Assembly: GCA_023898525.1 (NCBI GenBank)
Contig: CP060227.1
Location: 493,634-557,633, forward strand
Direction of reading: 5' to 3'
Source: Candidatus Nomurabacteria bacterium
GTDB lineage: Bacteria; Patescibacteriota; Minisyncoccia; Phycocordibacterales; UBA918
Length of the DNA stretch: 64,000 nucleotides
Made by a program: the position numbers and the translations under genes. Positions 11,911 to 64,000 of the stretch are shown here, piece by piece (the stretch's first letter is position 1; each line of letters opens with the position of its first letter). The notes beneath the pieces were generated by a model that was not told the DNA's origin, did no database searches, and saw only the letters and a list, made by a program, of their open reading frames with translations.

Positions 11911-11980
11911 ACAATTGTCTTTATTTAACAAAGCCCCTGCATTATGCCTGAAAAGATAGTTCACTTCAAGCGAAGTGAGA

Positions 11981-12033: not shown

Positions 12034-12041
12034 GTTTGAGC

Positions 12042-45950: not shown

Positions 45951-46066
45951 CGTATTTCCGACTTTAAATTTGACAGTGTTTGAGGTGTTCAAAACTGTCT
46001 GTATTTCAGACATTCATAATTTTGAAAATAGCAACTCGTGTGTTTTTTGTTATAATTACTATTATT

Positions 46067-47143: not shown

Positions 47144-48502
47144 ATGTATATGACAAACATAAATCATGGGTCAATGGAAGTGGCGACCTTAGATAAACAA
47201 CTTCCGCAAATTAAATATTGTCTTTATGCTCGAAAGTCTATGGAAGACGAAGATAGACAGGCACTGTCTATAGACTCTCAGTTAAAAGAAATGAGAAAGA
47301 TTGCTGAGCGTGAAAATCTATTCATTTCAGCCGTTCGTACAGAAGCTCATTCAGCAAAGCTGTCAGGTCAAAGACCAGTCTTCAACAAAATCATTGAGGA
47401 AATAAGAAACGAGAGATTTAATGCAATCCTAACGTGGAATGCGGACAGGTTAAGCAGGAATGCTGGCGACTTGGGAGTTCTAGTTGATTTAATGGACCAA
47501 AATCAACTAACTGAGATACGGACATATAATCAAACATTTAGTAACTCACCAAATGAGAAGTTTCTTCTTATGATTTTGTGTTCACAAGCCAAACTTGAGA
47601 ATGACAACAAAAGTATAAATGTAAAACGAGGACTACGAATGAAGGTAGAAATGGGGTTATGGCCATGTATCGCACCCACAGGGTACTTAAATGATATGGT
47701 CCGTGGGCACGAAGGAAGAGTTATCGTTGATCCAGCACGGGCACACATCATTAGAAAAATGTTTGAACTAGTAGCTGAAGGCTGGACACAAAGACAGTTA
47801 CGGTTTTGGTTAAAAGATGAACTAGATTTCACCACCAGAACTGGCAAACATCTAAGTATGGGTAGTATTCAAAAGATTTTGAGTACGCCTTTTTATTATG
47901 GCGAGTTTGAATACCCTAAAGGTAGCGGTAAGTGGTACAAAGGTATTCACAAACCAATTATCACAAAAGAGTTATTCGATATAGTTAAAGCTCAAAATCA
48001 AGCCCGCAGAAAACAGAATTACATTTTCAGGAAAAATATTGCTTTCACCAAACTGATGAAGTGTGGTTTATGCGGTGGCAACGTAACTGCTGAGGAGAAA
48101 TTCAAAGCACTTAAAGACGGAACTATCGCAAGATACGTTTATTATGGCTGCACTCGATCGAAAGATGTGAACTGCAAAATTAAATACATCCGAGAAGAAA
48201 AGTTAATCGAAAAATTACGTGAGCTAATCGACAAAATATCTTTGGATGATTTAGGTCTTAGGGGTCAGTTTGAACAAGAGGTTGAGCGCATACATAAATT
48301 CAACTGTGATGTTATGGGAAAACCACCAGTTTACTCTGATGAGGAGCAGAGAGAAGTAGACATTAAGAAATACGTGAAGTATTTGCTCGCCTACGGAGAT
48401 ATAGATGAAAAAAGACATATTTTAATTAGTCTTAAAAACAAACTGATCTTGAAAGATGGCGAGGTGTATTTAGAAACTATTGATGATACTGAGGAAATTT
48501 AA
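47144..48502 (+). CDS. Large serine recombinase, paralog 3
   Basis: YARKSMEDED, LSIDSQ, ILTWNADRLSRNAGDLG. Confidence 0.85.
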   Translation: MYMTNINHGSMEVATLDKQLPQIKYCLYARKSMEDEDRQALSIDSQLKEMRKIAERENLFISAVRTEAHSAKLSGQRPVFNKIIEEIRNERFNAILTWNADRLSRNAGDLGVLVDLMDQNQLTEIRTYNQTFSNSPNEKFLLMILCSQAKLENDNKSINVKRGLRMKVEMGLWPCIAPTGYLNDMVRGHEGRVIVDPARAHIIRKMFELVAEGWTQRQLRFWLKDELDFTTRTGKHLSMGSIQKILSTPFYYGEFEYPKGSGKWYKGIHKPIITKELFDIVKAQNQARRKQNYIFRKNIAFTKLMKCGLCGGNVTAEEKFKALKDGTIARYVYYGCTRSKDVNCKIKYIREEKLIEKLRELIDKISLDDLGLRGQFEQEVERIHKFNCDVMGKPPVYSDEEQREVDIKKYVKYLLAYGDIDEKRHILISLKNKLILKDGEVYLETIDDTEEI

Positions 48503-48766: not shown

Positions 48767-49510
48767 TTAGAGAATATGCACTCCGAAAGCTTCGAGTTTA
48801 TCTTTCTTTTTCTCCCACTTGGGATATTTCTCGTCTAAAAATGCGAAGAACTTCTTATCGTGATTTTTGTATCGCATATGACAAAGTTCATGAACAATAA
48901 CGTAGTCAATACAGTCTTTTGATACGTGTATTAGTTTGGGATTAAGAATGATTTTGTCTTTGTTCACAAAACTACCCCAACGACGCTTCATGTCCCGAGT
49001 AGTCAAGGCTGGAGTATGTTTGTAATCAAAACGCTCAAGCATCTCGTTAAATCTTTCTTCGAAAACACTTTGTCGTTTTTGATCAAACCAAAGCTTAACA
49101 AGTTTTTGAGTATGGACACCGTCACTTAATGCCTTAGTGGTGGAAACCATTAGTACTCCTCGCAGAAGAGAAACAGAATCTATCTCTCCCTTTCGAACAA
49201 TTAACTTATGCTGTCTGCCAAGGTAGTGGAAACTTTCGCCAGAAACATACTCTTTGGTATACGTTTTACGTTGGTACTTACCAAAGAAGTTCAGTTGTTT
49301 CTGTAGCCAAAACCATTTCTTTTTCAAGAATTGCTCAATTCTTTCATCATCAGCTTCATGTGGACACTTAACACAAATCCGCATATCCGGAGTAACGGTT
49401 AGGCTGAGGGTTTTTCTATCTTGTTTAATGAGGTCGTAGCAGTAGACGAATGAGCCAAAAATAAATTCTTTTTGCTGTTTAGGAGAAGATTTCATGGTTA
49501 TTCTCAGCAA
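48767..49510 (-). CDS. YgjP/DUF45 (M48-like, HExxH) metal-dependent hydrolase commonly linked to type I R-M operons
   Basis: VHELCHM motif. It overlaps the hsdR stop by 32 nt. Confidence 0.65.
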   Translation of the reverse strand: MLRITMKSSPKQQKEFIFGSFVYCYDLIKQDRKTLSLTVTPDMRICVKCPHEADDERIEQFLKKKWFWLQKQLNFFGKYQRKTYTKEYVSGESFHYLGRQHKLIVRKGEIDSVSLLRGVLMVSTTKALSDGVHTQKLVKLWFDQKRQSVFEERFNEMLERFDYKHTPALTTRDMKRRWGSFVNKDKIILNPKLIHVSKDCIDYVIVHELCHMRYKNHDKKFFAFLDEKYPKWEKKKDKLEAFGVHIL

Positions 49511-52500
49511 GCATAAGTGTATTGTTTATGATGGTTCGAATATCATCATTGGTAAGATCAATCTGCTTTTCAGTCTTTACTGTGTCGTAGAGGTAATCAT
49601 CAACCTTATTCATGATTTTTCTTTTCACATCTAAGTTTTTGTACCAATCAACAATAGCTTCTGCTTTAACGATATTGAAAATATCGAGGACTATTGTAAC
49701 GAATTCTTCTTCTGAAAGTTTAAAGTTGCCAAATGATTCTCTTAAGTTTCGATAAAACACATCTGAACCACTAACAGACTCAATCGCGGTTGGTAGACTG
49801 TCATCCTTTTTATTAACAACATCATCGCTAATTAGCTTCAATTGCTTAAGAGCAGCGATGTCAGCCATTTTGCCCTCATGCATTTTCTTTAAGATGTCTG
49901 ATATTTTCTTTGAGAATCGCTCGTAGAATTCAGGATCAGAATCCATCTTTTCAGTAATGTTCTTTTGAGTCTGTGCCGCAATCGCTTCTGCCTTAGATTT
50001 ATCTGATCCTAGTGTTTCGATTGCTTCCTCAAACTTTTCGCGATCAGTAATATTGATTTGTTTAGTTAAAAGCTCGACACTTTGGGCATCTACGTACTTA
50101 TCAAGAATCCCAACCAGTGATTGTTTGTATTCCGCCAAATCAACTCGGTCTGCATACTTCAAACTAGCAGTCTTTCGAAGCTCCATAAACTTCTTAAGTT
50201 CACGAGTGTACATATCGAGATTATCAAACTCATGAACAAAGTCTTGAAGCACAAAACACTCATTTAGATTTTTGATGAAAGCATTGAGAGTTTTGTAGAA
50301 AGTCTCTCGGGTCGGGGCATCATCCAGTAACTGTAAAAACTCTTCATCGTCAGATGAGCCTTTAATAGTTTTAAAGATGTCTTGAAGAAGACTGTAACTT
50401 TCTTCCAACTCCTCAACCTTCTTACTCACATCAACCATGGTGCCTTTCACGTCTTCTTCATCGTAGTTACCAAACAGCTTCATCGCTGTATCAATGTTCT
50501 TGGCATTTTCAGAGTAGTCGATGATATACCCTGCTGTCTTAGGCAACTTCTTATTTTCATGCAATCGGTTTACACGAGCAATTGCTTGTAAAAGGTTATG
50601 GTCACGCAAGTCTTTTGCTAAGTAGAGCACTGTATTTCGAGGGGCATCAAAGCCGGTCAAAAGCTTATCTACAACGATGATGATTTCGATTCCATCATCA
50701 TTGTATTTAAAGCTATCAATCACATCTTTTTCATACTTCGCTACACTACTGTGATTCTTTCGTACACTATCAAGGTACTTTACCACCTCAGCCTTATGGG
50801 TGTTTGCTTCGTCACCATCATCATGCTCGTCTGAAATAACTACTGCAGTACGAATTTTCGCCCTGTCTTGGAAGAACTTCTGAAACAAAACAGCCGAATA
50901 CTTTGAAGGAGCAACCAACTGTGCTTTAAGACCAGTATCTTGGAAATGTTCCGTGAAGTGCTTTTCAATGTCATACCCAATTTCAACAATACGCTGAGGA
51001 TTGTCTTTAATAACTTTAGTACTTATGTATTTCTGAATCTCTCTTTTTTGCTTTTCGTTTAAGTCTTCAGTAATTCGATCTACCTGTCTATCAATTTGCT
51101 CAGCATTCTGTTCCATTGGCACATAACGCCCCTCATAGATAAGCGGAAGAATGATGTTATCAGCCAGAGCATCATCAATCGTGTATTTGTCGATATATCC
51201 ACCAAACTTTTTCCAACTAGCCTTCTCTGACTTCATGAGTGGGGTACCAGTAAAGCCGATGTAACACGCATTTGGAATAATGCGATTCATCTCAAGATTG
51301 GCGATACCGCTTTGACTACGGTGTGCTTCGTCAATCAAGACGAAAATATTTTGATCGTCATCAATAAAGCCAGCCTTTTTCTTAGCTGCTGAATCAAACT
51401 TATCGATCACCGTTGTAATTACACCGAGGTTTTTATCCTTGATGAGATCAAGCAGGTTTTGTCCGCTGGTAGCCTGAATAACCTCTTTCTTGAGATTACA
51501 GTTTTTAAAGGTATCTCGAATTTGTTTATCCAAGTCTTTTCGGTCAGTCACAATTAGAACCCGAGGGTTGCTAATCTCAGGATTTTCAATCAGCGCCTTC
51601 ACGAACATGACCATTGTCAGTGACTTTCCTGACCCTTGTGTATGCCACACCAAACCACCTTTTCGACGAGTAATACCTGTATCAGTAGTCTCAGTTTCTT
51701 TAATGTGGTTCAACATTTTGCTGATAGCAAAATACTGCTGGTAGCGAGAAAGTTTTTTAACACCTGCATCAAAAAGAATGTAGTTCTTTGTGAGATCAAG
51801 TAAACGCGCAGGTTCAAAAAGCGACAAAATACCTCGATCTTGCTCAGTCGGTAACCGATTCAGTTTTTGCTTATGGCCAGTAGTGTATCCATTCAAATCA
51901 GTCAGTACTTGTTTGTATATTTCTGCATCTACTGGTGTTGCAATCAGCTTTTTAATCTTTGCGTCTAGTTCTTTTGGTGTTGTACCTTTTTCTTTCCAGA
52001 CAGCATAAAACTTATTTGGTGTACCAGTCGTACCGTATTGCAATTCTTTGCCATTTGTCCCTACAAGCAACTGGGTAAAGGTATACAGTTTTGGGCAAAA
52101 CTCAGGTCCCTGATTACGATTCATCTGATTAATCGCTTCAACTACGGGAACACTAGACTTTTTATTCTCAATAACTGCAAATGGGATACCATTTACGAAA
52201 CAAACGATATCAGGGCGAATGTTTTGCTTACCACTGGCCACATATTCAGCTGTGATATGGAAGGAGTTGTTTTCAGGATGTTCAAAATCAATAAAACGAA
52301 AGTTCTTTGAGACCGTCTTACCACCCGCACTCACCTTAATAGTCTTACCGCCCGAAGTTGGCATGATGATGTTGTAGATTTTTTGTGAAGTATCAATCAG
52401 GCCCTCGTACTGGATATGTTCAAGCTCTTCAATCGTGTCTCGAACGTCTTTCTCACTAAACTTGTATGATTTACCATCAACCTCATATCCGTTGATATCC

Positions 52501-52667
52501 ATCAATTTACGTTCAGCAATATCTGCCAGTATGAAATTGCTGGTGTCGCCACCACGTTCCTTGAGCACATCCTCAGCAGAAATGTATTGGTAGCCCATAG
52601 CAATCAGTAACTCAAGGGTGGTGAGTTGAGACTGTCGGGCTTCGTCAAAGTGTACTTTTTCTAACAT
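49479..52667 (-). CDS. hsdR: Type I restriction enzyme R subunit (second system)
   Basis: WHTQGSGKSLT, VLIDEAHRSQ; 1062 aa. Confidence 0.9.
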   Translation of the reverse strand: MLEKVHFDEARQSQLTTLELLIAMGYQYISAEDVLKERGGDTSNFILADIAERKLMDINGYEVDGKSYKFSEKDVRDTIEELEHIQYEGLIDTSQKIYNIIMPTSGGKTIKVSAGGKTVSKNFRFIDFEHPENNSFHITAEYVASGKQNIRPDIVCFVNGIPFAVIENKKSSVPVVEAINQMNRNQGPEFCPKLYTFTQLLVGTNGKELQYGTTGTPNKFYAVWKEKGTTPKELDAKIKKLIATPVDAEIYKQVLTDLNGYTTGHKQKLNRLPTEQDRGILSLFEPARLLDLTKNYILFDAGVKKLSRYQQYFAISKMLNHIKETETTDTGITRRKGGLVWHTQGSGKSLTMVMFVKALIENPEISNPRVLIVTDRKDLDKQIRDTFKNCNLKKEVIQATSGQNLLDLIKDKNLGVITTVIDKFDSAAKKKAGFIDDDQNIFVLIDEAHRSQSGIANLEMNRIIPNACYIGFTGTPLMKSEKASWKKFGGYIDKYTIDDALADNIILPLIYEGRYVPMEQNAEQIDRQVDRITEDLNEKQKREIQKYISTKVIKDNPQRIVEIGYDIEKHFTEHFQDTGLKAQLVAPSKYSAVLFQKFFQDRAKIRTAVVISDEHDDGDEANTHKAEVVKYLDSVRKNHSSVAKYEKDVIDSFKYNDDGIEIIIVVDKLLTGFDAPRNTVLYLAKDLRDHNLLQAIARVNRLHENKKLPKTAGYIIDYSENAKNIDTAMKLFGNYDEEDVKGTMVDVSKKVEELEESYSLLQDIFKTIKGSSDDEEFLQLLDDAPTRETFYKTLNAFIKNLNECFVLQDFVHEFDNLDMYTRELKKFMELRKTASLKYADRVDLAEYKQSLVGILDKYVDAQSVELLTKQINITDREKFEEAIETLGSDKSKAEAIAAQTQKNITEKMDSDPEFYERFSKKISDILKKMHEGKMADIAALKQLKLISDDVVNKKDDSLPTAIESVSGSDVFYRNLRESFGNFKLSEEEFVTIVLDIFNIVKAEAIVDWYKNLDVKRKIMNKVDDYLYDTVKTEKQIDLTNDDIRTIINNTLMLAENNHEIFS

Positions 52668-52673
52668 AGTAAT

Positions 52674-53843
52674 TTATTTAGTGGCTGATAATGATTTAAC
52701 TGTTCTAATATTCCCGTGAACCAGGTTTTCTAGTAAGTATTTTCTCTGTTCTCTTACAAGTTTTAATTTGTCTTTTAAGTTCTCTAGTTCAAGTTCGCAA
52801 GTTTCAAATATCTCAGCAATTTTGATTTGATCGTCAGTATTCTCTGGAAGACTTACCTTTGTCTGCAAGAATTGGTTTTTTGACAAATTATATCTACTGA
52901 CTCCCTGAGCTATTCTAAACATATGTTTCCTAAATGACTTACCCCTAAACAAAAAACGAGCAAAACGTGGCTCTAAAATATTTTGTTTTGGTCTAAACCC
53001 AAAACAAAAGCTGTTTAGCAAGACTTTATTTTTACTTTCATCTAAGAAAACTGAGGACATACCTACATCCTGTGGTGTTTCTGATGATGTGGTGAATATC
53101 AAATCACCATACTCTAAGTAATTCTGCTTCTCTCCTTTTTGGATAGAAACTAAACCATATTGATCAGGATGAATCTTTGAGTTTGAAAAAACATTCATGT
53201 ATGTGACATATGGTGTGCCAAAACCGAAGTCGTCTTTTGATTTTCCTGTAAGTCCAGTAAAGGTTACTCCTAATTGGGAGATGGTATAAGTTTTCCATTC
53301 GCTTTTTGAACCTGGTACTTTAATTCGTTCATTCAATACTTCTTCTAGTAGACCTTTCTTTGTTTGTTCCTTTTTACGAATAGTTCTTTGTAGTTCATTA
53401 ATATAGCAATCCCATGTAGTAAGGATTGAAACAATTTTCTCTTGTTCTGCAGTTGGAGGGAAATCAAAAGGTATTTTTTCAATAGTCGTTTTAGATAAAC
53501 TTGGTACGCCAGAAGCTTCGTTGTATTTAAGCCAATTAATTTTCTGAAAAACGTAGTTGATGTATTTAGCAGTAGTGTCCTTGAAGTTGTAGGTATAGAA
53601 AAGCGTATCTACTGTCCAAAATTTTCCATTGTAGTAAAACGGTTTGTTAATAGTTCCTTTTCTGCCAATAAAAACTGTCTCGCCTTCGTGCAACGGGGTA
53701 TCTACGTGACGCATTAAACCACCTGTTCCAAACACTGGAATATCTCCGTCTTTGAGATGCTTATGGTCTTTGCCACTTCCTATTTTCAGCACGTCGCCAA
53801 GCTTTTTTCGAGACCATCCTTTAACTAAAGTTTCTTTTTTCAT
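52674..53843 (-). CDS. hsdS: Type I R-M specificity subunit, full length (second system)
   Basis: Two TRDs. Its N-terminus is homologous to the hsdS at 24248..25390. Confidence 0.8.
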   Translation of the reverse strand: MKKETLVKGWSRKKLGDVLKIGSGKDHKHLKDGDIPVFGTGGLMRHVDTPLHEGETVFIGRKGTINKPFYYNGKFWTVDTLFYTYNFKDTTAKYINYVFQKINWLKYNEASGVPSLSKTTIEKIPFDFPPTAEQEKIVSILTTWDCYINELQRTIRKKEQTKKGLLEEVLNERIKVPGSKSEWKTYTISQLGVTFTGLTGKSKDDFGFGTPYVTYMNVFSNSKIHPDQYGLVSIQKGEKQNYLEYGDLIFTTSSETPQDVGMSSVFLDESKNKVLLNSFCFGFRPKQNILEPRFARFLFRGKSFRKHMFRIAQGVSRYNLSKNQFLQTKVSLPENTDDQIKIAEIFETCELELENLKDKLKLVREQRKYLLENLVHGNIRTVKSLSATK

Positions 53844-53844
53844 A

Positions 53845-54282
53845 TTACTTTTGAATTTTCTCTAAGTCAGCTGGCATATACCGCACCACGTTACCTTGCT
53901 TATCGACTGAAAAGACATGAAGCAAGAGCTTCTTGGCAATTTGATATGGAATACGTTTGATAGCCTTGTCGGCTGATTTTTTAGGCAGAGCAATACCGTA
54001 GTAGTAGCGTGTAGAACCAGAAGTGTTCATGCGAGTAATGATCTGGCCAAGTGAGTAAATAAAAGCCACCTCTTCACTTGAAGAATTATTTGAACCCTTA
54101 CACTCAATAAGGTAATAGCGTGAGTATCGTGTGTGGACCGCTTTAATATCGACTCCTTTCTCTCGTAGGGTAGCCACCTTAACTAACCGCCAATGATGTT
54201 TCGACAGCCATTCAATCACTCTTGTTTGCACAAAGTCTTCGGTGATGTCTCGTGAGGTATCTTTTTTCTTAGCATTACTCAT
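53845..54282 (-). CDS. Small PD-(D/E)xK nuclease-fold protein (Mrr/NERD-like)
   Basis: GVDIKAV...YYLIECKG fits D...ExK. Confidence 0.45.
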   Translation of the reverse strand: MSNAKKKDTSRDITEDFVQTRVIEWLSKHHWRLVKVATLREKGVDIKAVHTRYSRYYLIECKGSNNSSSEEVAFIYSLGQIITRMNTSGSTRYYYGIALPKKSADKAIKRIPYQIAKKLLLHVFSVDKQGNVVRYMPADLEKIQK

Positions 54283-54284: not shown

Positions 54285-55178
54285 TTAATTGTCGATAGCT
54301 ATTACTTGGGAAGGCACATTGTCACCGTTTTCCTTAGGTGCCATGATGACCTGCTTGTAGTGATTGCAGGCAGCGTTCAAATATTCCTGTAACTCGTCTA
54401 GATTAACAAGTCCGTTTTTTATATCGTCTGGATGTATGGCTATGATGAGTCTTTCACAAACATTAATTTGCTTATTAGCTTCAATGTAACTATCAATAAT
54501 CTCCTTGGCTGTCGTCATCTTAGTCAGCGACGCATTACGCCCATGGCCAGAATTTACTAGAGGAATTGTCACATATTTATTTCTACCCGATTCATTGCCA
54601 ATAAAATCCCAAACTGAAGCAAGCGAAGTAATCAGGTCATCAATACTTGCCTTAACACGATTGTTTTCTAGTTTGTGTGAGTTTGCTAGTAAATAAAATC
54701 TCTTATTGTTATTTTCCACCTCAACTGTCGTACCAATTGGATTTTCAGTATTTTGAGAAACTTTATCTTTTATATCAGCCTCTAAATGCTCGTGCCTCCC
54801 ACCGTAGTAGTCACAAATTAACTTGTTTTGTAGACTATTTGCCTTTGCAACGTTCCCGCCTAAAGTCAGGTCAAAGTGATCATTTATTGGTACTATCAAA
54901 GCACCTTTATTTTTAAATGCGTCTCCAACTTTAACTTCAATAAAATTATCTTTTTTGCGAATCCTGCTTGAAAAAGAAGTTTTCGGTTTATTCTTTAAAA
55001 TTGCAATAATAAAAATTAGCACCATTATTGGTAATGCAAACCACGGTTCTTTGAAAAGATGATCAACAACCCCGCTGGTCATGTAGCTACTCATCTCAAC
55101 GGCCAACCAAAATAAACCTAAGCCAGTTACTGTGTCAGCTACAATCAGTTTCCATTTTTTGATCCAGCGTAAAATCAT
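54285..55178 (-). CDS. thsA: Thoeris type II ThsA-like effector: N-terminal TM helices + C-terminal Macro domain
   Basis: ALIVPINDHFDLTLGGNVAKA aligns with the macro motif AIVNAAN-x6-GGGV, and SGHGRNAS with the second macro glycine-rich loop. Two N-terminal TM helices. Confidence 0.55.
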   Translation of the reverse strand: MILRWIKKWKLIVADTVTGLGLFWLAVEMSSYMTSGVVDHLFKEPWFALPIMVLIFIIAILKNKPKTSFSSRIRKKDNFIEVKVGDAFKNKGALIVPINDHFDLTLGGNVAKANSLQNKLICDYYGGRHEHLEADIKDKVSQNTENPIGTTVEVENNNKRFYLLANSHKLENNRVKASIDDLITSLASVWDFIGNESGRNKYVTIPLVNSGHGRNASLTKMTTAKEIIDSYIEANKQINVCERLIIAIHPDDIKNGLVNLDELQEYLNAACNHYKQVIMAPKENGDNVPSQVIAIDN

Positions 55179-55678
55179 AGTCCCAGATTTGTATATATCG
55201 AATTACCGTAATGGTATGCACCTGTCTTACCTTGTGCTCGATATGACTTGTGATCTTCTGGCCATTCGCGAATGGCTTTTGCCACAATTGATTTATTGAA
55301 ACTTACGTGCACCGCAAGTTCCCCAGTCAAAATGGCAGGACACAAATCATCCTTATCTCTTTTACCGTTTAGATTGACAACTACTATAGGAATGTCTTTT
55401 TTGATTGCTTGTTCGATTTCCCAGCGAACAAATTTGTATAGATATTTTGTGTTGTTACCCACCAAAAGTAGAAAGACACGGGTATTGGAAAGACGTTCCC
55501 GCAACTTTGCCTTAATTGTCTCCTCAGAAGAATAGGGCATTAGGTTGTTTAGATCATGTGCGTCATAAAAACCAAATGCACTGCCGTCTGTCTTTCGCCA
55601 AGCCTGCATTAGTCGGTAGTAACGAATATCGTTATCAGCATCAAACGCAACGTATGCTTTGTTAGTATAGGTGCTCAT
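55175..55678 (-). CDS. thsB: Thoeris ThsB-like TIR-like domain protein (DUF1863 type)
   Basis: KAYVAFDADND...RVFLLLVGNNTKYLYKFVRWEIEQAIKKDIPIVVVNLNG matches the MTH538 TIR-like pattern. It overlaps thsA by 4 nt. Confidence 0.6.
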   Translation of the reverse strand: MSTYTNKAYVAFDADNDIRYYRLMQAWRKTDGSAFGFYDAHDLNNLMPYSSEETIKAKLRERLSNTRVFLLLVGNNTKYLYKFVRWEIEQAIKKDIPIVVVNLNGKRDKDDLCPAILTGELAVHVSFNKSIVAKAIREWPEDHKSYRAQGKTGAYHYGNSIYTNLGL

Positions 55679-55679: not shown

Positions 55680-57017
55680 TTATTTGCTATTTTTAGTTGC
55701 TATATCTTTAACATCTTTCACGCTCTCAATAACTTCATTTTTCATCTTTTTATAGAACCCTTCCACATGAAAGCGTTCTGAAACACGGTCAATTATTGTT
55801 TCGCCCCGACCAAGATGCTCTGCGGGATTATGTTCAATAGCTTCGAGAAGTATTTGAGCCAATTTGTCCTTATTTGCAGTGTCTAACTGATATGATTTGT
55901 CTCCCGTATTAAACAATAGATACATCTCTACGACTCTAAGTTTGTGATTATATTCTTCAAATAAGCGTTTACGTTGAGAGATATTTCTTTGCCCGTACCA
56001 TGCGATCCAGATTAAAGGAATTGAAATAATGGTCTTTACGTAGATCAGCTCAAGTGCAGAGGGAGTGACACCTTCAGCAGTGAGACTATTGAGAACTATT
56101 TCTGCAGTCTTCTCATTCACAAAAATGAGAGACACACCTACAAGAGGTAATATGAACATCGCATAGTTCATAACTGAGCCAACGTGACGACCTAAAATAT
56201 TATGAAAAAATATAAGGACATTTTCGATGTGTGCACCTTTAATGAATTCTTTTCGCTTGAACTTTGAATATTCAGATTTAGATTCTGTGTAAGCGTTTAG
56301 TAAAGTTCTGGTGGTTGCATCAGATAGAAGAGAGTTTACATCTTCACGCTTAGTATCAATGTCAGTCCTCAGATCTTTAAGATACTTTCTTGTTTCTTCT
56401 ATTTCTGGAGTTACTTCGGTGTCAATTTTTTTCTTAAAAAGCTCCGCTTTCTTAATGTTAGCTTCAAGATTTTGAATTTCACTATTCTCACCCTCAGGAG
56501 CATCAAACAACTCTTCGTATTTTTCGGTGATTTCTGTGTATATTCTTTTTGTCTCTTCTTCAATGCCGTCAGTCTCTGTGAGTTTTGTATAGAAATCACG
56601 AATTTCCTTTGCTTTACCTGAGGTTCCATCACCGCCTAGCAAATCAACATAAAAATCTGTGATTTTTTGTTGAGAATCCTTTATATCAGTTTGTATTGAA
56701 TCTGGGTTTGAAATCAGTTCAGCGTGATAGGCCTTAATAGCATCAACTTGTGTTTGTAGTGCATTAACAACAGAAGTATCTGCGATAGATCCGTTGGGAA
56801 AGATTTTTGTGTACGCATTATTAATATCCTGAATTTTTTGTTCTATGGCAGGCAAAACTGCTTCAGACCCATTATCTCCTTCAAAAAACTTTTTGTAGAG
56901 TTCATTGATTGATCCTATTTCTTCAAGCGATGCCTTGATCAGATCCCACAGTTCTTCCTTAGTTGGAGATTTTGCGCTTGGGTCTATTTGCGAAAGTAGT
57001 TCGTTAAGCTTGCTCAT
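55680..57017 (-). CDS. Hypothetical 445-aa protein: long N-terminal coiled coil plus 3-4 C-terminal TM helices, embedded between hsdM and Thoeris
   Basis: No catalytic motif. TM segments include YAMFILPLVGVSLIFV and IISIPLIWIAWYG. Confidence 0.4.
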   Translation of the reverse strand: MSKLNELLSQIDPSAKSPTKEELWDLIKASLEEIGSINELYKKFFEGDNGSEAVLPAIEQKIQDINNAYTKIFPNGSIADTSVVNALQTQVDAIKAYHAELISNPDSIQTDIKDSQQKITDFYVDLLGGDGTSGKAKEIRDFYTKLTETDGIEEETKRIYTEITEKYEELFDAPEGENSEIQNLEANIKKAELFKKKIDTEVTPEIEETRKYLKDLRTDIDTKREDVNSLLSDATTRTLLNAYTESKSEYSKFKRKEFIKGAHIENVLIFFHNILGRHVGSVMNYAMFILPLVGVSLIFVNEKTAEIVLNSLTAEGVTPSALELIYVKTIISIPLIWIAWYGQRNISQRKRLFEEYNHKLRVVEMYLLFNTGDKSYQLDTANKDKLAQILLEAIEHNPAEHLGRGETIIDRVSERFHVEGFYKKMKNEVIESVKDVKDIATKNSK

Positions 57018-57020: not shown

Positions 57021-58529
57021 TTATTTGATACCTAATTCTTTTAAATAAACTTCCATCTGTTTTTCCAGCTTCTTTAGCTCAGGTTCAAGCTTTGCCAGCT
57101 CTTTCAAGTTCGCTTCAATGTCTACAGGCTCCTCTTCCTCAAAGGTATCTACATACCGTGTGATGTTCAGGTTAAAATCATTCTCCTCAACCTCAGCCAA
57201 GTCAACCTTGCGAGCAAACTTTTCTACATCTTTCCGCTTCACGAATGTATCGTAAATTTTATTGATGTGGTCTTCGGTAAATATGTTTTGAGCTTTGCCA
57301 GCTTTAAACTCTTTCGATGCTTCAATAAAGAAGATGTCTTTCTTCATTTCGTTAGCGCCACCTTTCTCACGTGAGCGGTCGATTACTAAGACTGCAACTG
57401 GAATACCCGTGGTTTGGAATAGTCCAGCAGGTAAACCAATTACCGCATCAATGATGTTTTCTTTAATTAGTTGCTCACGAATTTTTCCCTCTGCACCGCT
57501 TCGGAAGAGAACACCATGAGGAACAATCACTGCTACACGACCAGTCTTAGGTTTAGCGGTTTCGATCATGTGGGTAATGAATGCAAAATCCCCCTTGTCT
57601 TTAGGTGGTACTCCTCGCCAGAAGCGATTGTACGCATCAGACTCTGCATGCTCTGCACCCCACTTCTTCAGGGAGAATGGTGGGTTTGCTACAACTACAT
57701 CGAAGTGCATGAGTTGGTCATTTTCAACTAAGAGCGGGTTATTTAGTGTGTCGCCCCATTCAATACGGGCTGAGTCTTTACCATGCAAAAACATGTTCAT
57801 ACGAGCAAGCTGATAGGTAGCACCAGTAGATTCTTGCCCATAGAGCGCATAGTTCTTTGAACCTTTCTTTTCTACTTCTTCACCAGCTAAAAGCAGAAGG
57901 CCGCCCGAACCACAAGCAGGGTCGGCTATACGGTCACCTTCTTTAGGTTGCGCTAGCATGGCTACTAACTGAGCTACGGACCTCGTCGTGAAAAATTCAC
58001 CCGCCTTTTTTCCAGCAGCTGCACCGAAGCGCTCAATCATGTACATGTATGAGTTTCCAATGATGTCATCTCCAACATCAGACAGGTCGATTTTTGCGAA
58101 ATCTTGAATCAAGTTGCGAAGCATCTTATTTCGCTGTGGTAGTTTGCCAAGCAGTGCTTCTGAATTGAAATCAACACTAAACACACCTTCGAGCTTATCG
58201 CTGTTAGCGTCTTCAATACGATGGAGGGCTTTGTTTATCTCATCGCCGATATTATCTTCTTCAATTTTGCTGTAGATGTAGTCAAAAGATGATTTGGGAG
58301 GTAGGTAGAAACGGTCGAGTTTCATTTTCTCCTCAATACGCTTTTCGTCATCGCCAAATCGCTCTTTGTACTCTTGGTACTTCTTTTTGTTTTGATCACT
58401 CAAATACTTAAAAAACAACATCGGCAACGCATAGTCCTTATACGTTTCAGCCGCCAATTGACTGCGGGAAGAATCAGCCGCTGACCAGAGTACTTTATTG
58501 AGTTCTTCTTGTGTGAATTTTTTAGTCAT
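57021..58529 (-). CDS. hsdM: Type I R-M N6-adenine methyltransferase subunit (second system)
   Basis: VVANPPFSLKKWG. Confidence 0.9.
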   Translation of the reverse strand: MTKKFTQEELNKVLWSAADSSRSQLAAETYKDYALPMLFFKYLSDQNKKKYQEYKERFGDDEKRIEEKMKLDRFYLPPKSSFDYIYSKIEEDNIGDEINKALHRIEDANSDKLEGVFSVDFNSEALLGKLPQRNKMLRNLIQDFAKIDLSDVGDDIIGNSYMYMIERFGAAAGKKAGEFFTTRSVAQLVAMLAQPKEGDRIADPACGSGGLLLLAGEEVEKKGSKNYALYGQESTGATYQLARMNMFLHGKDSARIEWGDTLNNPLLVENDQLMHFDVVVANPPFSLKKWGAEHAESDAYNRFWRGVPPKDKGDFAFITHMIETAKPKTGRVAVIVPHGVLFRSGAEGKIREQLIKENIIDAVIGLPAGLFQTTGIPVAVLVIDRSREKGGANEMKKDIFFIEASKEFKAGKAQNIFTEDHINKIYDTFVKRKDVEKFARKVDLAEVEENDFNLNITRYVDTFEEEEPVDIEANLKELAKLEPELKKLEKQMEVYLKELGIK

Positions 58530-59106
58530 GTTGTTTTGTAAGGTTAGTAAATGTTGCTTCGACGATTTGTTGTTTTAAATACTGGCGACGATCGACAATT
58601 GATTGTTGGGCTTGAATGTTTTCATGCAGTGCTACGATTGCTTTTTGCTTCTCTAGCTCTGGCACTGGAATTTTTATGTGTATGAGTTCCCGCCGGGGTA
58701 AGGCCCCAATGTATGAACCAGTGACGATATTAGCCAGTGAGTCTTGTCCCTCTTTTGAATTGAGGTAGTGAGATAGAAACTCTGGAAGCACCTTGCTCGT
58801 ACTTATTCGAATAATGTGTACAGATGCCGATGCAATAACATTCTGAGCATCAGACATGAAGACAGCTGCACGAAAGGCACCAGCCTTCATACCTCGTGCC
58901 ACAATTAGAACATCATTTTTTTGGAGGTACCTGTCGTCAGGAGGGAGGTCAAGCGATATCTTGGTCAATGAACTCACATCCGAGACTGGGACACCTTGTA
59001 CCAAGTCACGAGCCTGAAATACCAGTGTATTGCCGTTGCGCGTTTCTTCAATAGCTCCGCGAAAAGCGTAGCCTGGAGTTACTTGGGCAATATCTGACAA
59101 TTTCAT
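58522..59106 (-). CDS. hsdS: Half-size type I R-M specificity subunit (single TRD)
   Basis: 194 aa. Its C-terminal conserved helix (ELEKQKAIV) is typical of HsdS. Confidence 0.65.
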   Translation of the reverse strand: MKLSDIAQVTPGYAFRGAIEETRNGNTLVFQARDLVQGVPVSDVSSLTKISLDLPPDDRYLQKNDVLIVARGMKAGAFRAAVFMSDAQNVIASASVHIIRISTSKVLPEFLSHYLNSKEGQDSLANIVTGSYIGALPRRELIHIKIPVPELEKQKAIVALHENIQAQQSIVDRRQYLKQQIVEATFTNLTKQHD

Positions 59107-59153: not shown

Positions 59154-60488
59154 CTAGTTAGGCTGACTTTGTAATTTAACAACCTTGTTATTCATGGTTA
59201 TTTTCGAGTTAAAGCATGAAAGTATCTCTCGCTTTTCCTCGATAGTACCGTCTTTGAGTAAGAACTTTATGTAGCTTTTCGCATCTATCTCACTTGCATC
59301 AGTACTTGTCTTCTCACCCAAAAGGGTCTGATTGAATTTCTTGTACCGAGCAACCTCAGCTTTAATTCGCTTGATCACTTCGCCCTCGCTGAACGAAGCG
59401 ACATCGACAAGCTTTTGAAGTTGTTTGATGAGATCAGTCTCATTTAAGTAACCACACTTACAGTGCTTGTCCCGTGCTTTGGTGCAGGTGTAATAGACAT
59501 GAGCGTTAATCTTGCCGTTCTTAAGCTTTTTGTATTTCTCATCAGCACTAATACCAGATCCGCACAAACCACAAATCATCAGCTTGGTGAAAGCGAACTC
59601 TTTTTCTTGGCGAGTCTTTAATTCGTTTCCTTTCAGTTGTTCTTGGACTAGGTCAAATAATTCTTTCGTGATGAGTGGTTCATGTCGCCCTTGATACCAG
59701 TTGCCACTGTTGCGAGGATATTCAAAGACACCGTAGTAAAAGTGATTCTCAAGAATTCGGTAAATATTGCCGAGACTTAAATGCTTTTTACTAGGTAGAG
59801 CACGGAAGTTTAATTCAAACCGAAGCCAGTTATAGACCTTGCGACCAGACCACTTTTCATACGCGACCTTCTCAAATACCTTTTTAATCACAGGTGCACG
59901 TTCTGGGTCGATAAGTGTCTCGCATTTACGATCCATTCGTTTTTCTTTCACGTACCCTGTCGGTGCTGGAGCTGGCCACAACCCCATCTCCACCCGAGCC
60001 TTAAGGCCACGCTTCACATTAATACTCTTGTTATCGTTCTCCAGCTTGGCTTGGGAACACAGAATCATGAGGAGAAACTTTTCACTTGGATTATTGGTGA
60101 ATGTCTGTCCATGTGTGCGTATCTCAACGAGTAGTTTTTGGTCCATGAGGTCAACCAACTCACCGAGGTCACCAGCATTACGACTGAGTCGGTCAGGGTG
60201 CCACACAATAATCCCATTAAATTTCTCTCTTCGTATATCTTCTAGTATTTCTCTGTATACAGGTCGCTGGCCAGATGCTTTGGCGGAATGAGCTTCACGG
60301 CGAACTTCTACTATATCGAGACCTTCTTTCTCAGCCATCTGCATCATTTCGTTCACTTGTGATTCAATAGAAAGTGCTTGGCGCTCATCTTGCTCGGTAC
60401 TTTTGCGAGCGTATAAAACATAACGCACCGCTATAGGTGGCGGTGCGATTGAGTGGCTCATTCGAGCGGATATCTGTTGTGTTTCCAT
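59154..60488 (-). CDS. Large serine recombinase, paralog 4
   Basis: YARKSTEQDE, LSIESQ, IIVWHPDRLSRNAGDLG. Confidence 0.85.
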   Translation of the reverse strand: METQQISARMSHSIAPPPIAVRYVLYARKSTEQDERQALSIESQVNEMMQMAEKEGLDIVEVRREAHSAKASGQRPVYREILEDIRREKFNGIIVWHPDRLSRNAGDLGELVDLMDQKLLVEIRTHGQTFTNNPSEKFLLMILCSQAKLENDNKSINVKRGLKARVEMGLWPAPAPTGYVKEKRMDRKCETLIDPERAPVIKKVFEKVAYEKWSGRKVYNWLRFELNFRALPSKKHLSLGNIYRILENHFYYGVFEYPRNSGNWYQGRHEPLITKELFDLVQEQLKGNELKTRQEKEFAFTKLMICGLCGSGISADEKYKKLKNGKINAHVYYTCTKARDKHCKCGYLNETDLIKQLQKLVDVASFSEGEVIKRIKAEVARYKKFNQTLLGEKTSTDASEIDAKSYIKFLLKDGTIEEKREILSCFNSKITMNNKVVKLQSQPN

Positions 60489-61254: not shown

Positions 61255-62694
61255 TTAGCCAAACAAGATTGAGTTTTTCTTCCGTGGTTTCCAGTTCACC
61301 ATCGTTTCAATGGTAACCAATGAAAAAGCATCAGCTAAATCATCGTGTTTTTCTGATCCAAAATTAATAAGCTCTTGAATTAGCTTTTCTGCCTTACCAA
61401 AGGGAAAGCGTATTCTTCCTGCACTCAGCGCAGGAGCGGTCAGGCTGATTCGCTCTTGTTTTGTGCCTATTGGTGTCACTCCGATAACATCAACGTCATC
61501 TTCTTTTGATTGTTGCACGACAGCATCCTGATAGCCGACATTCTCAATATAGAACTTAACGGGTAGTCCATATTTTGTTCGTAACTTATATTCGAGTGCT
61601 TTGATTTCTCTACAGGTCTCTGGGAAACGCATGCGGGCGTGTACTATCTCAGGTAGAACATAAAGGCATTTTTCATCATTCTTAGTGCAGGCCAATACAG
61701 GAATCATAGCCGTGTAGTCAGCTGATGTTTTCTGCGAGATCGCAAGGTCGGCGCCGACGAAAATAGCATGTTGATCGACATCTCTCGGTATCTCATGATA
61801 ATGGGATATCCAAAGCGGGTCGATTATCTGATCGCCCGAAGGAATAATCTTCAATAAATATTCACGCTCCCACGCTTGTTGGTTAATTGTTTTTCTGCGA
61901 AGTTTTTCAATAGATTCAGGAGTGGGGTACTTCTCAGGCCATATACAATTACCGAATGTGTCGAGAAAGGGATATGATTTGAAATATCCATCAATCTCGC
62001 CTGATTCAATCCCTTCCCGCAAACGAACCATGAGTGAATCATCATGTACTAAGTTACCAACGAGCACTACTTTCGTATCATCATCACCAGCGGGAATGAT
62101 TTCGCTGGTAAACCAATTGAATGTTTTGTCTCGACTGTCTTGCGTCTTTGTTGATGCCAAGTCTTCGATGTCGTCACAAATAATCAAGTCGGGGCGATAA
62201 CTCTTATGTCGCAATCCGCGCATACTTTGATCAACAGATAGAACAGTGATACGAGCATCGTATTTAGGAATTACAATTGAAGACATTCGCCACTCGTCAT
62301 CTGGTTCCTCGAAAGGTCCAAGATCCTGTTTGAGTAGCTCGTTCCGCTCAAGTTCAGTTTTAATGTGTTGCAAAAGTTGCTTCGCTTGTTGTTGAGTGCG
62401 AGAAACAATCAGCACGTACTTCTTTTTCTGAACACCAAGAATAGCCCATAGAGGGTACGAGAGCGAAAAGATCGTAGATTTAGCAGAGCCTCGAAACGCT
62501 ACCACTACCGTGAGGGGGAGGTCAGTTCGTTCAGTCAACTCAAACATCTCTGAATGAAATGACCCGCTTACATGCTTTACATAGTCATGTAGATACACGG
62601 GCATAAATAAACGGTGGCTTTGCTTGGTCACTTCACGCCGTACCTGCGGATCATTGATTATTCTTTGCAGCAACTCAGGTTTCAGATTGTCCAT
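61255..62694 (-). CDS. Phage terminase large subunit
   Basis: Walker A region VAFRGSAKST, Walker B LIICDDIED, C-terminal nuclease-like domain; 479 aa. Confidence 0.7.
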   Translation of the reverse strand: MDNLKPELLQRIINDPQVRREVTKQSHRLFMPVYLHDYVKHVSGSFHSEMFELTERTDLPLTVVVAFRGSAKSTIFSLSYPLWAILGVQKKKYVLIVSRTQQQAKQLLQHIKTELERNELLKQDLGPFEEPDDEWRMSSIVIPKYDARITVLSVDQSMRGLRHKSYRPDLIICDDIEDLASTKTQDSRDKTFNWFTSEIIPAGDDDTKVVLVGNLVHDDSLMVRLREGIESGEIDGYFKSYPFLDTFGNCIWPEKYPTPESIEKLRRKTINQQAWEREYLLKIIPSGDQIIDPLWISHYHEIPRDVDQHAIFVGADLAISQKTSADYTAMIPVLACTKNDEKCLYVLPEIVHARMRFPETCREIKALEYKLRTKYGLPVKFYIENVGYQDAVVQQSKEDDVDVIGVTPIGTKQERISLTAPALSAGRIRFPFGKAEKLIQELINFGSEKHDDLADAFSLVTIETMVNWKPRKKNSILFG

Positions 62695-63070
62695 AATTTT
62701 GCTTTCCGTTAACCATTTTTAACGCCTGTTCAATAGTGCTCTTTTGTTCTTCAGAGAGTTCTTTATCTGCCACCTCAGTGTTTTTTACTGACTTAGTTGA
62801 AAAACGTTGGTGATTATTTGTTAGCCAAAGACGAATCGCTGAAATCTTCTTTTCTTTAATGAGTTGCAACAACTGGTTTTCACTTAAGTCATTTATATGT
62901 TCAATACCGTCTATTGAAGCGGCATCGAACTTTTCCTTAAACTCAGGGTCATCTTTTAACCACTTATAGATAGTGTTTCGTGAGATACCTACTTTCTCAC
63001 AAGCGACAGTAACGATTGGTATCTTACGCATCTCTTCTAGGAATAGATCACTGTGACTGTCTTTTTTCAT
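62675..63070 (-). CDS. Phage terminase small subunit-like HTH protein
   Basis: VACEKVGISRNTIYKWLKDDPEF; immediately upstream of terL. Confidence 0.55.
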   Translation of the reverse strand: MKKDSHSDLFLEEMRKIPIVTVACEKVGISRNTIYKWLKDDPEFKEKFDAASIDGIEHINDLSENQLLQLIKEKKISAIRLWLTNNHQRFSTKSVKNTEVADKELSEEQKSTIEQALKMVNGKQNYGQSET

Positions 63071-64000
63071 ACCCTTTCAACCCTCGCCTTAATGCCAGTA
63101 AGTTTTTCAAAGCGGTTGATGATAAGGTCGCAAAAGACGGGTTCAAGCTCACAACCGAAAACCCGCCTATCTAGTTGTTCGGCCGCAATGAGTGTACTGC
63201 CAGAACCAAGAAACGAATCTAAGATGATATCGTTGGGTTTTGTGCAACGTAGTATTGCTTTTTGATGTAGTTCGGGCGGCTTACTGGTGGCATGATTATA
63301 TTGCTGAGCAGGCAAACGTCTTACTGCCCAAATATCTGTAAACTGTTCCAGCAAATCATTGCCTGTGGTCGCTTCTTTGTTCATCACCTCATTCAGATCT
63401 GTTCGCATTTCAGCAAGGTACGGCTTACCTCGTGTTCCATATGTGCAAGGCTCATATACTTTATTGAAGGCTACTTGTGGCACAGGGTTTTGTACATTCT
63501 TGAGCCACAAGCAGACTCGTTTATTACTCACACCGAGCTTGCGATACACACTCTGAATTAGTCCGATATAGATTTGGTCTGACCACATAAACACATGTGC
63601 ATCATTTGCAGTGACAGATAAAGCCGCTTCAAGACTACTGGTAATGAAGTTTTCATATTCTTCATAAGTGCGTTTGTCGTGAACTTTTGCACCGTAGTTG
63701 CTCTTTCCACCAAGTCCAGAGCTATAGTTGTATCCCACATTGTAGGGCGGATCTGACGCTATCATGCTAGCTCTCTCATCGCCGTATAGTTTTTGTAAGG
63801 TGCCAAGTTGAGTGCAGTCACCACAAATTATTTTGTGTTTGCCTAAATGAATGATGTCACCTAGTTGGGTAGTTGGCGTTTTAATTTTCTTCAGCTCTTT
63901 CTCAACATCAAACGTATCGTTAGTAATTTCTTTTTTATCGTCCCAAAAACTAGCCAGCTCAACGGTCTCAAAACCCGCTTCGGTGAGTAAGTCAATGTCG
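63067..64000 (-). CDS. DNA methyltransferase (DPPY family), 5' end beyond window
   Basis: ASDPPYNVGYNY, and upstream in frame HKIICGDC. It is homologous to 32892..33707 and 33667..34941. Confidence 0.8.
   Translation of the reverse strand, partial: DIDLLTEAGFETVELASFWDDKKEITNDTFDVEKELKKIKTPTTQLGDIIHLGKHKIICGDCTQLGTLQKLYGDERASMIASDPPYNVGYNYSSGLGGKSNYGAKVHDKRTYEEYENFITSSLEAALSVTANDAHVFMWSDQIYIGLIQSVYRKLGVSNKRVCLWLKNVQNPVPQVAFNKVYEPCTYGTRGKPYLAEMRTDLNEVMNKEATTGNDLLEQFTDIWAVRRLPAQQYNHATSKPPELHQKAILRCTKPNDIILDSFLGSGSTLIAAEQLDRRVFGCELEPVFCDLIINRFEKLTGIKARVERV

Follow-up and report, generated by a model that had tools for sequence, protein, structure and literature searches.

A Candidate Accessory Anti-Phage Membrane Protein Embedded in Type I Restriction-Modification Operons of Patescibacteria

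A 64,000-nucleotide stretch of a Candidatus Nomurabacteria genome (assembly GCA_023898525.1, contig CP060227.1, positions 493,634 to 557,633 of the forward strand; hereafter the window) contains, within a type I restriction-modification (R-M) operon, a 445-residue open reading frame (ORF) that we call gene X. Judged from its sequence, X is a genuine gene that encodes an uncharacterized two-pass membrane protein, and it represents a new protein family, probably of a known functional kind, the accessory effector carried in an R-M operon. Our preferred, though tentative, reading is that X is a self-contained sensor-plus-effector membrane protein and an accessory anti-phage gene co-expressed with type I R-M. 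We infer this candidate role from architecture and context only: a variable helical domain is combined with a conserved membrane module, the family is linked to mobile elements, and one of its branches has repeatedly been taken up into type I R-M operons.

Gene X and the Architecture of Its Product

Gene X extends from 55680 to 57017 on the minus strand, from an ATG to a stop codon; the initial annotation of this DNA had delineated exactly the same 445-residue ORF and had left out its strand. Among 5.8 billion proteins, we found 78 relatives with identities ranging from 100% down to 34%, nearly all of them full-length (390–475 aa). The closest is P0001, a hypothetical protein of a Candidatus Nomurabacteria metagenome-assembled genome, which is 100% identical to X. 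This perfect match and the 78 full-length homologs give strong support to X being a real gene. The named relatives belong to Pacebacteria and other Patescibacteria. Most relatives are labeled "hypothetical protein"; among the few exceptions are one "coiled-coil domain-containing protein" and the two automatic names Lpp and RodZ given by the Joint Genome Institute (JGI). The G+C content of X is 36% versus 41% for the window, and that of the 48–57 kb stretch is 36–39% versus ~42% in the flanks. The gene and the segments of its product, including the predicted transmembrane (TM) helices, are as follows (window coordinates, all on the minus strand):

55680 to 57017, minus strand: gene X, a member of a superfamily defined by a coiled coil, two TM helices and the motif EEYNHK
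56238 to 57017, minus strand: N-terminal all-helical domain, predicted cytoplasmic, residues 1–260, acidic and variable
56268 to 56345, minus strand: conserved pre-membrane helix LLSDATTRTLLNAYTESKSEY, residues 225–250, aligned across the superfamily
56112 to 56180, minus strand: TM helix 1 (TM1), residues ~280–302, with a conserved F-I-x-P-L
56058 to 56111, minus strand: inter-TM loop, residues 303–320, short, variable and predicted extracellular
55989 to 56057, minus strand: TM helix 2 (TM2), residues ~321–343, with a conserved P-L-x-W-I-x-W-Y/F-G-Q
55905 to 55988, minus strand: post-TM2 helix RNISQRKRLFEEYNHKLRVVEMYLLFNT, predicted cytoplasmic, residues 344–371, the most conserved segment
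55683 to 55904, minus strand: C-terminal helical region, predicted cytoplasmic, residues 372–445, with the signature NPAxxLGxxET.xD

In the AlphaFold2 (AF2) model of full-length X (predicted local distance difference test score, pLDDT, 71), the N-terminal ~260 residues are entirely helical, with helices at residues 19–44, 53–71, 82–102, 107–126, 134–146, 151–170, and 179–248. The hydrophobicity of this region, averaged over the family, has a period of 3.5–3.6 residues, and on both counts the heptad-rich, coiled-coil-like N-terminus previously described for X holds. The domain carries 36 K/R versus 53 D/E residues, has a mean pairwise identity of 35–37% and, in distant relatives, is swapped for other coiled-coil N-termini. 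We take it to be the putative sensor or regulatory part of the protein.

Conservation was examined in an alignment of 46 family members (A1), which does not include Met1, so that its numbering is one below that of the protein. The pre-membrane helix ("LLSDAT…Y") has a mean pairwise identity of 55%, and its counterpart in distant relatives reads LLPxAxxAGLAxxYxxAK. Identity amounts to 45% in TM1, in which F, P, and L are invariant, and to 54–55% in TM2, in which P and W are invariant; both TM helices of the hairpin have prolines in mid-helix. The loop that separates them is only 18% identical and differs in length among relatives. The Kyte-Doolittle index peaks at 2.15 in TM1 for X alone and at 2.44 for the family average, and nothing outside the two TM segments rises above 0.16 in the family-averaged profile. 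The initial annotation had described three to four TM helices at the C-terminus. Neither element of this description was borne out, as exactly two hydrophobic segments are seen both in X alone and in the family-averaged hydropathy, and as about 100 predicted cytoplasmic residues, among them the best-conserved element of the family, follow TM2. The charge of X is 0 ahead of TM1, −2 between the two TM helices and +4 beyond TM2, from which the positive-inside rule predicts that both termini are cytoplasmic.

Invariant positions in A1 are few and clustered, namely in F-I-x-P-L (TM1), in P-L-x-W (TM2) and in the post-TM2 block. Directly after TM2, this block reads W-I-x-W-Y/F-G-Q-R-N-I-S-Q-R-K-R-L-F-E-E-Y-N-H-K-L-R-V-V-Q-M-Y, and the best-conserved element of the family can be written RxxSQRKRLFEEYNHKLRVVQMY. 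With a mean pairwise identity of 78%, the post-TM2 helix is the most conserved part of X, and EEYNHK itself (residues 354–359; window positions 55941–55958) is invariant in A1. This post-membrane helix (…QRKRLFEEYNHKLRVVQMY) is nearly invariant and highly charged and is followed by a small helical C-terminal domain; in AF2 models, TM2 and the EEYNHK helix form a single continuous helix of ~50 residues. Further downstream, identity is 45% over residues 372–412 and 18% in the tail, the same value as in the linker, and the N, P, G, T, and D residues of the C-terminal region are nearly invariant in A1. The isolated C-terminal module was modeled with a pLDDT of 84.7 and a predicted template modeling score (pTM) of 0.69. 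An identity of 78% after TM2, as compared with 35–37% in the N-terminal domain, is what one would expect if a conserved effector were joined to a sensor that diversifies.

Association of X with Type I R-M Operons

We collected X loci from other genomes by exact look-up of homologs and by scanning GTDB species genomes and JGI metagenomes, and annotated them by tblastn with the proteins of the window. Once duplicates had been removed, 35 informative loci and three fragments remained, that is, 38 loci (within L001–L022 and L029–L052). In 25 of the 35 informative loci, X is part of a type I R-M operon or its immediate neighbor. The usual gene order is halfS-hsdM-X-hsdS-hsdR-YgjP, with X almost always between hsdM and hsdS, and most X loci, like the window, have an hsdR. 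Adjacency or overlap of X with a full-length hsdS is seen in L001, L004, and L008, in which the two junctions of X are a 6-nt gap and a 17-nt overlap, a 4-nt overlap and a 2-nt gap, and 4-nt overlaps on both sides, respectively. L008 also has another type of HsdR (EcoEI_R_C). In many Patescibacteria, the translation of X is coupled to that of its neighbors within an hsdM-X-hsdS-hsdR operon. Other arrangements exist: hsdM-HepT-MNT::hsdS-X-…-hsdR in L022, a Polaribacter chromosome, an order that resembles that of the prr locus, and X-hsdR-hsdM in L039.

The HsdM proteins encoded at X loci fall into groups that are 63–84%, 38–47%, and 25–28% identical to the HsdM of the window. When X-X and HsdM-HsdM identities were compared across the 16 loci in which both proteins are complete, the correlation was low (Mantel r 0.22, p ~0.04; Spearman 0.10, not significant), and mean X identity was 41–43% both where the HsdM pair was >70% identical and where it was <50% identical. 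Because the HsdM lineages are 25–84% identical and X and HsdM barely co-vary, these sequence comparisons indicate that X is reshuffled among, and re-associates with, different type I systems and is not simply co-inherited with them, while repeatedly ending up at the same site. In the remaining 10 of the 35 loci, X is stand-alone, which argues that it would be able to act alone. It is found, for instance, on a small Rep-encoding element (L002), beside genes for radical-SAM, GIY-YIG, methyltransferase, and PIF1-type helicase proteins (L007), or among housekeeping genes (L009).

In the window, X is also adjacent to the two genes of a Thoeris system, and the initial annotation had accordingly placed it in an R-M/Thoeris island and proposed that its co-occurrence with Thoeris be examined. 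We ran this comparison, and tblastn found no match (E < 1e-4) to ThsA or ThsB in any of the 38 other X loci. The description of the locus stands, since X does lie in a type I R-M operon that holds a Thoeris pair; the link between Thoeris and X does not. As none of the 38 other loci has ThsA or ThsB, the Thoeris pair is an independent insertion in one genome and not a partner of X, and the data support the type I R-M system, rather than Thoeris, as that partner. As for the more general suggestion that X is a candidate defense component, its context strongly favors a defense-related accessory role (25 of 35 loci), though not one in partnership with Thoeris.

Other genes of these loci deserve mention. 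The X-bearing type I lineage consistently has two specificity genes, one half-size and upstream of hsdM, the other full-length and downstream of it; tblastn located the half-size hsdS upstream of hsdM in L001, L004, L006, L010, L011, L015, L018, L020, L032, L040, L042, and L046. When the gap between hsdM and hsdS holds further genes, these are classic R-M accessory genes that usually lie between hsdM and X and encode RhuM (1.8e-105), Bro-N/DinD-like, SLFN_AlbA_2, or HigA/ImmA-like proteins (L006 3577–5930; L010 7109–7978; L013 2572–3615; L015 3852–4667; L020 6670–7506; L041 1762–6496). In this type I lineage of the Candidate Phyla Radiation (CPR), the hsdM-hsdS interval acts as a hotspot at which accessory genes insert. 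In L008, a Hachiman-like pair (HamA and a helicase; 8614–12074) comes right after the X-bearing R-M operon, defense systems being stacked there.

A Wider Superfamily and Its Carriage by Mobile Elements

A profile search of 1.84 billion representatives (clusters at 50% identity) returned 736 proteins at E ≤ 1e-3, of which 249 at E ≤ 1e-10. Many of them share with X only the part that runs from the pre-membrane helix to the C-terminus. In distant members, this module reads LLPxAGAAGLAxxYxxAK … TM1 … TM2 … RRLYEEYNHKQRVMQLY … KPS/NPA and is joined to coiled-coil N-termini of very different length, in proteins of 230–585 aa. We define the superfamily by the LLxxAT/LLPxAxxAGLA helix, two TM helices (F-I-x-P-L and P-L-x-W), and a post-TM2 R-L-x-E-E-Y-x-H-K helix situated about 70–95 residues from the C-terminus, all of which are present in X. 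The literal EEYNHK occurs in 173 of 212 collected relatives and a close variant in 195 of the 212, with a distance from motif to C-terminus of 71–93 residues (10th–90th percentiles).

A second profile search added 338 proteins; those with a source name are called "hypothetical," two automatic names from JGI excepted. No informative Pfam domain has been precomputed for any of the 338, and two of them carry a single Pfam accession. They include proteins of Escherichia, Enterobacter, Morganella, Yersinia, Acinetobacter, Chromobacterium, Xanthomonas, and Rhodanobacter. The enterobacterial-type sister branch has the motif RFRLAEDYxFKAS, and hhalign aligned it to the window family with a probability of 94.4% (E 8.8e-8) over 226 columns that span both TM helices and the motif; by this profile comparison, the sister branch is homologous to the X family.

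Searching with a distant member (tblastn) retrieved 12 plasmids and one temperate Providencia phage (PSTCR8lys), and the sister-branch profile retrieved 52 IMG/VR viral contigs (L054–L105), that branch being common prophage cargo. One relative, WP_001583354 (463 aa; L023 6623–8014, Klebsiella plasmid NZ_CP083056.1), is encoded in a plasmid-borne P2-like prophage, between the replication endonuclease gene gpA with DinI and the portal gene gpQ. Precisely this gpA-gpQ interval of P2 was defined as a hotspot for anti-phage systems by Rousset et al. (2022, PMC9122126), who list WP_001583354 in its cargo as "hypothetical," without its being among the genes tested there (Table S5A). Apart from this single occurrence in Table S5A, we found no mention of WP_001583354 in the main text of publications. 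Its gene is present in 13 of 5,426 complete Escherichia coli genomes. Other superfamily members neighbor an AAA_15/PIN/MNT-HepT/DUF4276 cluster or a group of tyrosine integrases. The X family has a patchy distribution tied to mobile elements, and type I R-M operons have taken up one of its branches on repeated occasions.

Searches for a Known Family or Fold

The absence of an enzymatic motif and of a family match noted in the initial annotation was borne out by our searches of Pfam, NCBIfam, PADLOC, and PHROGs, in which X gave coiled-coil noise and one weak PHROG match only. No real Pfam match was obtained for the 46 family members, for 10 distant members or, at E ≤ 10, for isolated C-terminal modules. 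Nor was there any clear homology to a curated housekeeping family, the outcome that the initial annotation had named as contrary to its proposal: Pfam and NCBIfam matches all lie below the curated cut-offs. In Pfam, NCBIfam, and PADLOC, X matches no ATPase or nuclease family, and Pfam and PADLOC give no homology to ThsA (Macro/SIR2-SLOG) or ThsB (TIR). X contains none of the hsd domains (N6_Mtase, Methylase_S, HSDR_N/ResIII), and blastp of 316 relatives against the Hsd proteins of the window revealed no similarity and no X-HsdM or X-HsdS fusion.

In PADLOC 2.0, X matches DruC only (E 0.0016), across the coiled coil, and no significant match outside the coiled coil was found among its defense proteins (CBASS/Pycsar TM effectors, ZorA, LeoBC, DruC). 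The PADLOC matches of 77 superfamily members are SMC-like coiled-coil proteins (LmuB, JetC), with LeoBC in 3 of the 77. LeoBC (Eleos), matched by two distant members at E 1e-5 and 4e-4, was dropped as noise, given these three occurrences amid SMC-like coiled-coil matches. The sole genuine library relatives of the superfamily are phrog_30912 and phrog_34659, which have no assigned function; distant members match them at E 4.6e-13 and 5.9e-11, and X itself at 0.003 over residues 329–443. Against PDB sequences, a profile search returned only syntaxin and designed coiled coils, which we regard as noise. Foldseek gave no significant match for the full-length model (best E 0.78 vs. PDB) or for the C-terminal model (best E 0.32 vs. 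PDB and 0.084 vs. BFVD).

The Operon and the Island in the Window

Apart from X, the operon of the window comprises the following genes:

58522 to 59106, minus strand: half-size hsdS with one target-recognition domain (Pfam Methylase_S), upstream of hsdM
57021 to 58529, minus strand: hsdM, type I methyltransferase (Pfam N6_Mtase 1.5e-100 and HsdM_N; PADLOC MTase_I)
55175 to 55678, minus strand: thsB, TIR (PADLOC ThsB 1.5e-70; Pfam ThsB_TIR)
54285 to 55178, minus strand: thsA, TM and Macro (PADLOC ThsA 1.1e-37; Pfam ThsA_Macro)
53845 to 54282, minus strand: ORF of 145 aa, between thsA and hsdS
52674 to 53843, minus strand: full-length hsdS (Pfam Methylase_S 1.2e-30), directly after X in most other loci
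49479 to 52667, minus strand: hsdR, restriction/translocase subunit, an ORF of 1062 aa
48767 to 49510, minus strand: YgjP-like (DUF45) metallopeptidase (Pfam YgjP-like 2.6e-50), the usual last gene of the operon

The stop codon of hsdM lies 3 nt before the start of X, which itself ends 1 nt before the start of thsB. Since the genes of this operon are separated by gaps of 1–6 nt or show small overlaps, their co-transcription and translational coupling are almost certain. The hsdR of the window is 46–74% identical to those of other X loci, and its homologs in L004 and L005 carry HSDR_N, ResIII, SWI2_SNF2, and T1R_D3. A YgjP-like gene follows hsdR in many X loci.

The 145-aa ORF (53845–54282) has no match in Pfam, PADLOC, NCBIfam, PHROGs, or PDB sequences and is absent, by tblastn, from all other X loci. 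A PD-(D/E)xK-like pattern seen by eye (…GVDIKA…LIECKG…) suggests that it may encode a small nuclease-fold protein. The complete type II Thoeris pair (54285–55678, minus strand) is nested in the type I R-M operon between X and hsdS, with gaps or overlaps of 1–4 nt to its neighbors, so that one defense system is co-transcribed inside another.

The R-M/X/Thoeris island is flanked by two large serine recombinase genes, at 47144–48502 (plus strand) and 59154–60488 (minus strand), which are convergent and whose products are 53% identical; the only long inverted repeat that we found near the island lies inside these recombinase genes themselves. The island may be a mobile or invertible cassette. Beyond the recombinase, phage-like genes (61255–63765, minus strand) encode a Terminase_6C large subunit, a small-terminase-like protein with a helix-turn-helix (HTH), and an N6_N4 DNA methylase. 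In the JGI protein P0029 (585 aa), a homologous terminase N-terminus is fused to X from about residue 39, and either terminase and X are neighbors in another genome too, or this protein is an assembly or deletion artifact. On the other side, a beta-lactamase family ORF with an N-terminal hydrophobic segment (45980–47020, plus strand; Beta-lactamase2 3.2e-36) adjoins the island.

Possible Function and Alternative Explanations

If X is an accessory anti-phage effector, it would act by abortive infection (Abi), of whose membrane-disrupting effectors the initial annotation was reminded by the architecture, or by exclusion, and would form a second layer of defense beside R-M. The conserved module made of the two TM helices and the post-membrane helix might oligomerize into a pore or channel, or otherwise perturb the membrane, and the variable N-terminal domain would keep this effector module closed until the arrival of a phage-derived cue, which may be the failure or inhibition of the R-M system. 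Depolarization of the membrane or a block of DNA entry would then halt phage propagation. There is precedent for such a role, as transmembrane proteins serve as Abi effectors (PMC9122126) and as type I R-M systems have accessory effectors in PrrC and Ronin (PMC12707154; bioRxiv 10.1101/2023.04.06.535777). In an autonomous version of this scheme, X would sense infection by itself and would only share the operon; we favor this version because of the stand-alone and prophage-borne relatives and of the weak co-variation between X and HsdM.

Several observations weigh against the effector reading. X has no significant sequence or fold similarity to a known pore former or defense effector, and the PADLOC matches across the superfamily are coiled-coil noise. 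The profile of the EEYNHK branch has no match in IMG/VR, and the X of the window has no tblastn match in plasmid and phage collections. Some relatives, two in the wider superfamily and that of L009, are found among housekeeping genes without defense neighbors. Finally, given that the gap between hsdM and hsdS is an insertion hotspot, the association of X with R-M could be partly positional, not functional.

A closer dependence on the R-M system can also be envisaged, although we consider it unlikely. X would then be a strict guard of the PrrC/Ronin type, bound and held inactive by the HsdM/HsdS core, and an anti-restriction protein (an Ocr/ArdA-like DNA mimic or a Stp-like peptide) that hits the R-M complex would free it to depolarize the membrane. 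Such a mechanism would fit the fixed position of X between hsdM and hsdS, with overlapping or nearly touching stop and start codons, and its translational coupling. It would also fit the way in which this link is re-established in three or more divergent type I lineages and in loci whose genes are ordered differently (L022, L039). The presence of hsdR is in line with it too, the R-M system being therefore complete, as with PrrC, and so is the precedent of Ronin, whose small TM effector is neutralized by HsdMS and triggered by ArdA/Ocr (bioRxiv 10.1101/2023.04.06.535777). However, X and HsdM barely co-vary, which a tight protein-protein interface would not predict; R-M neighbors are lacking in 10 of the 35 loci of the X subfamily and for most of the wider superfamily, three unrelated genes separate X from hsdS in the window, and there are zero fusions to HsdM or HsdS in 316 relatives. 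We hold as similarly doubtful the bolder proposal that X founds a new class of restriction guards, in which a sensor-pore docked on the methyltransferase core would open a channel of two TM helices (2TM) upon anti-restriction attack, the superfamily at large being made of single-gene membrane Abi effectors with an EEYNHK gating helix. It is still less probable that X has no part in defense and is a coiled-coil envelope or division protein, or a selfish addiction or maintenance module, carried in variable regions by chance. The relatives that sit among housekeeping genes, the lack of any matching defense model and the weak matches to the coiled-coil cytoskeletal and division families EzrA, ZapB, and DUF948 would be compatible with this view. 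These coiled-coil matches are nonetheless far below curated cut-offs and no curated housekeeping family is matched; X and its relatives occur patchily, in association with mobile elements and R-M operons, and a rapidly evolving N-terminus is joined to an invariant effector-like core.

Two further explanations retain the R-M or the Thoeris context but change the role of X. We give little credit to the idea that X is a non-toxic membrane tether or scaffold, which would anchor the type I R-M complex where DNA enters. Both of its large domains are predicted to be cytoplasmic on a 2TM anchor, it is co-translated with HsdM and HsdS, and the long helix 179–248 could serve as a spacer. On the other hand, a plain anchor leaves the near-invariant EEYNHK helix and the mid-helix prolines unexplained, there is no R-M system for the stand-alone and prophage-borne relatives to anchor, and co-variation with HsdM is weak. 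As to X being a third component of the adjacent Thoeris system, either an extra membrane effector or a regulator of ThsA/ThsB, the shared transcription unit in the window, with 1 nt between X and thsB, would agree with it, and a system made of a TIR protein and a separate TM protein exists in the P2-like phage AC1 (PMC9122126). Yet, ThsA and ThsB occur in 0 of the 38 other X loci, the ThsA of the window already has its own TM and Macro effector architecture, and X has no predicted nucleotide-binding domain; Thoeris as a partner of X is rejected on co-occurrence and largely refuted, and we regard this last explanation as extremely improbable.

Were the accessory-effector reading true, a sizeable new superfamily (736 clusters at 50% identity), for which we found no Pfam, NCBIfam, or PADLOC model, would be added to the anti-phage repertoire. 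Following PrrC and Ronin, X would be a third, structurally unrelated, effector built into type I R-M operons, and the notion that suicide or exclusion modules routinely guard restriction systems would gain weight. Under the bolder proposal of a new guard class, WP_001583354 and the wider superfamily would be widespread and previously unrecognized single-gene membrane Abi effectors. Patescibacteria mostly lack CRISPR, and this reading would inform on immunity in CPR/Patescibacteria, whose defense biology is little understood and inaccessible in culture; under the guard mechanism, it would be the first such system in Patescibacteria. The superfamily is experimentally tractable through the E. coli relative WP_001583354, carried in the P2 defense hotspot by 13 sequenced strains, and the invariant EEYNHK helix is an obvious target for mutagenesis.

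Comparison with Known Systems

Literature searches on membrane proteins embedded in type I R-M operons yielded only the analogies of PrrC and Ronin. PrrC (EcoprrI locus; also RloC) is, like X, encoded by an accessory gene inside a complete type I R-M operon (hsdM, hsdS, hsdR), is likewise optional and also has relatives outside R-M systems. PrrC serves as the textbook case of an effector backing up restriction (PMC12707154). PrrC is, however, a soluble ATPase and tRNA nuclease, whereas X is a predicted 2TM membrane protein with neither domain. The two share no sequence or fold similarity, and an R-M-bound latency would be putative for X.

Ronin (RonA with an HsdMS decoy) resembles X in that the gene of a membrane-targeted effector is tightly linked to hsdM and hsdS, a feature known for X from its context, its effector role being putative. 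Ronin is proposed to be released from HsdMS when an anti-restriction protein binds and to disrupt the inner membrane without lysis (Silas et al. 2023, bioRxiv 10.1101/2023.04.06.535777). RonA has 61 aa and one TM helix, and hsdR is usually absent (bioRxiv 10.1101/2023.04.06.535777); X, in contrast, has 445 aa, a large domain predicted to be cytoplasmic, two predicted TM helices and complete R-M operons, and it is not homologous to RonA.

SLATT proteins and other 2TM effectors of CBASS, Pycsar, and TIR systems have, as is predicted for X, a 2TM hairpin followed by a conserved cytoplasmic helix. SLATT-type effectors are expected to permeabilize membranes upon oligomerization, an action that would be expected for X by likeness only. 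Two SLATT-annotated viral proteins were among the top BFVD fold matches of X, a hint at most, with nonsignificant scores (E 0.24 and 0.6, TM-score ~0.3). The Pfam families SLATT_1-5, SLATT_fungal, and DUF4231 were matched neither by X nor by 46 family members nor, at E ≤ 10, by five isolated C-terminal modules, although HMMER filters may hide very weak matches. Unlike the 2TM effectors of CBASS and Pycsar type, X has no linked nucleotide-signal synthase when found in other genomes.

The closest comparison is with true relatives, phrog_30912, phrog_34659, and WP_001583354, all of which carry, as X does, the module made of the 2TM part and (E/D)(E/D)Y-x-[HF]-K. These relatives are prophage-borne, at a locus known as a reservoir of defense genes. 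They differ from X by having RLAEDYxFKAS instead of RLFEEYNHKLR, by their other N-terminal domains and by not being linked to type I R-M. It is with the PrrC/Ronin class, finally, that X shares its placement embedded in R-M operons, as seen in the window and in 25 of the 35 informative loci.

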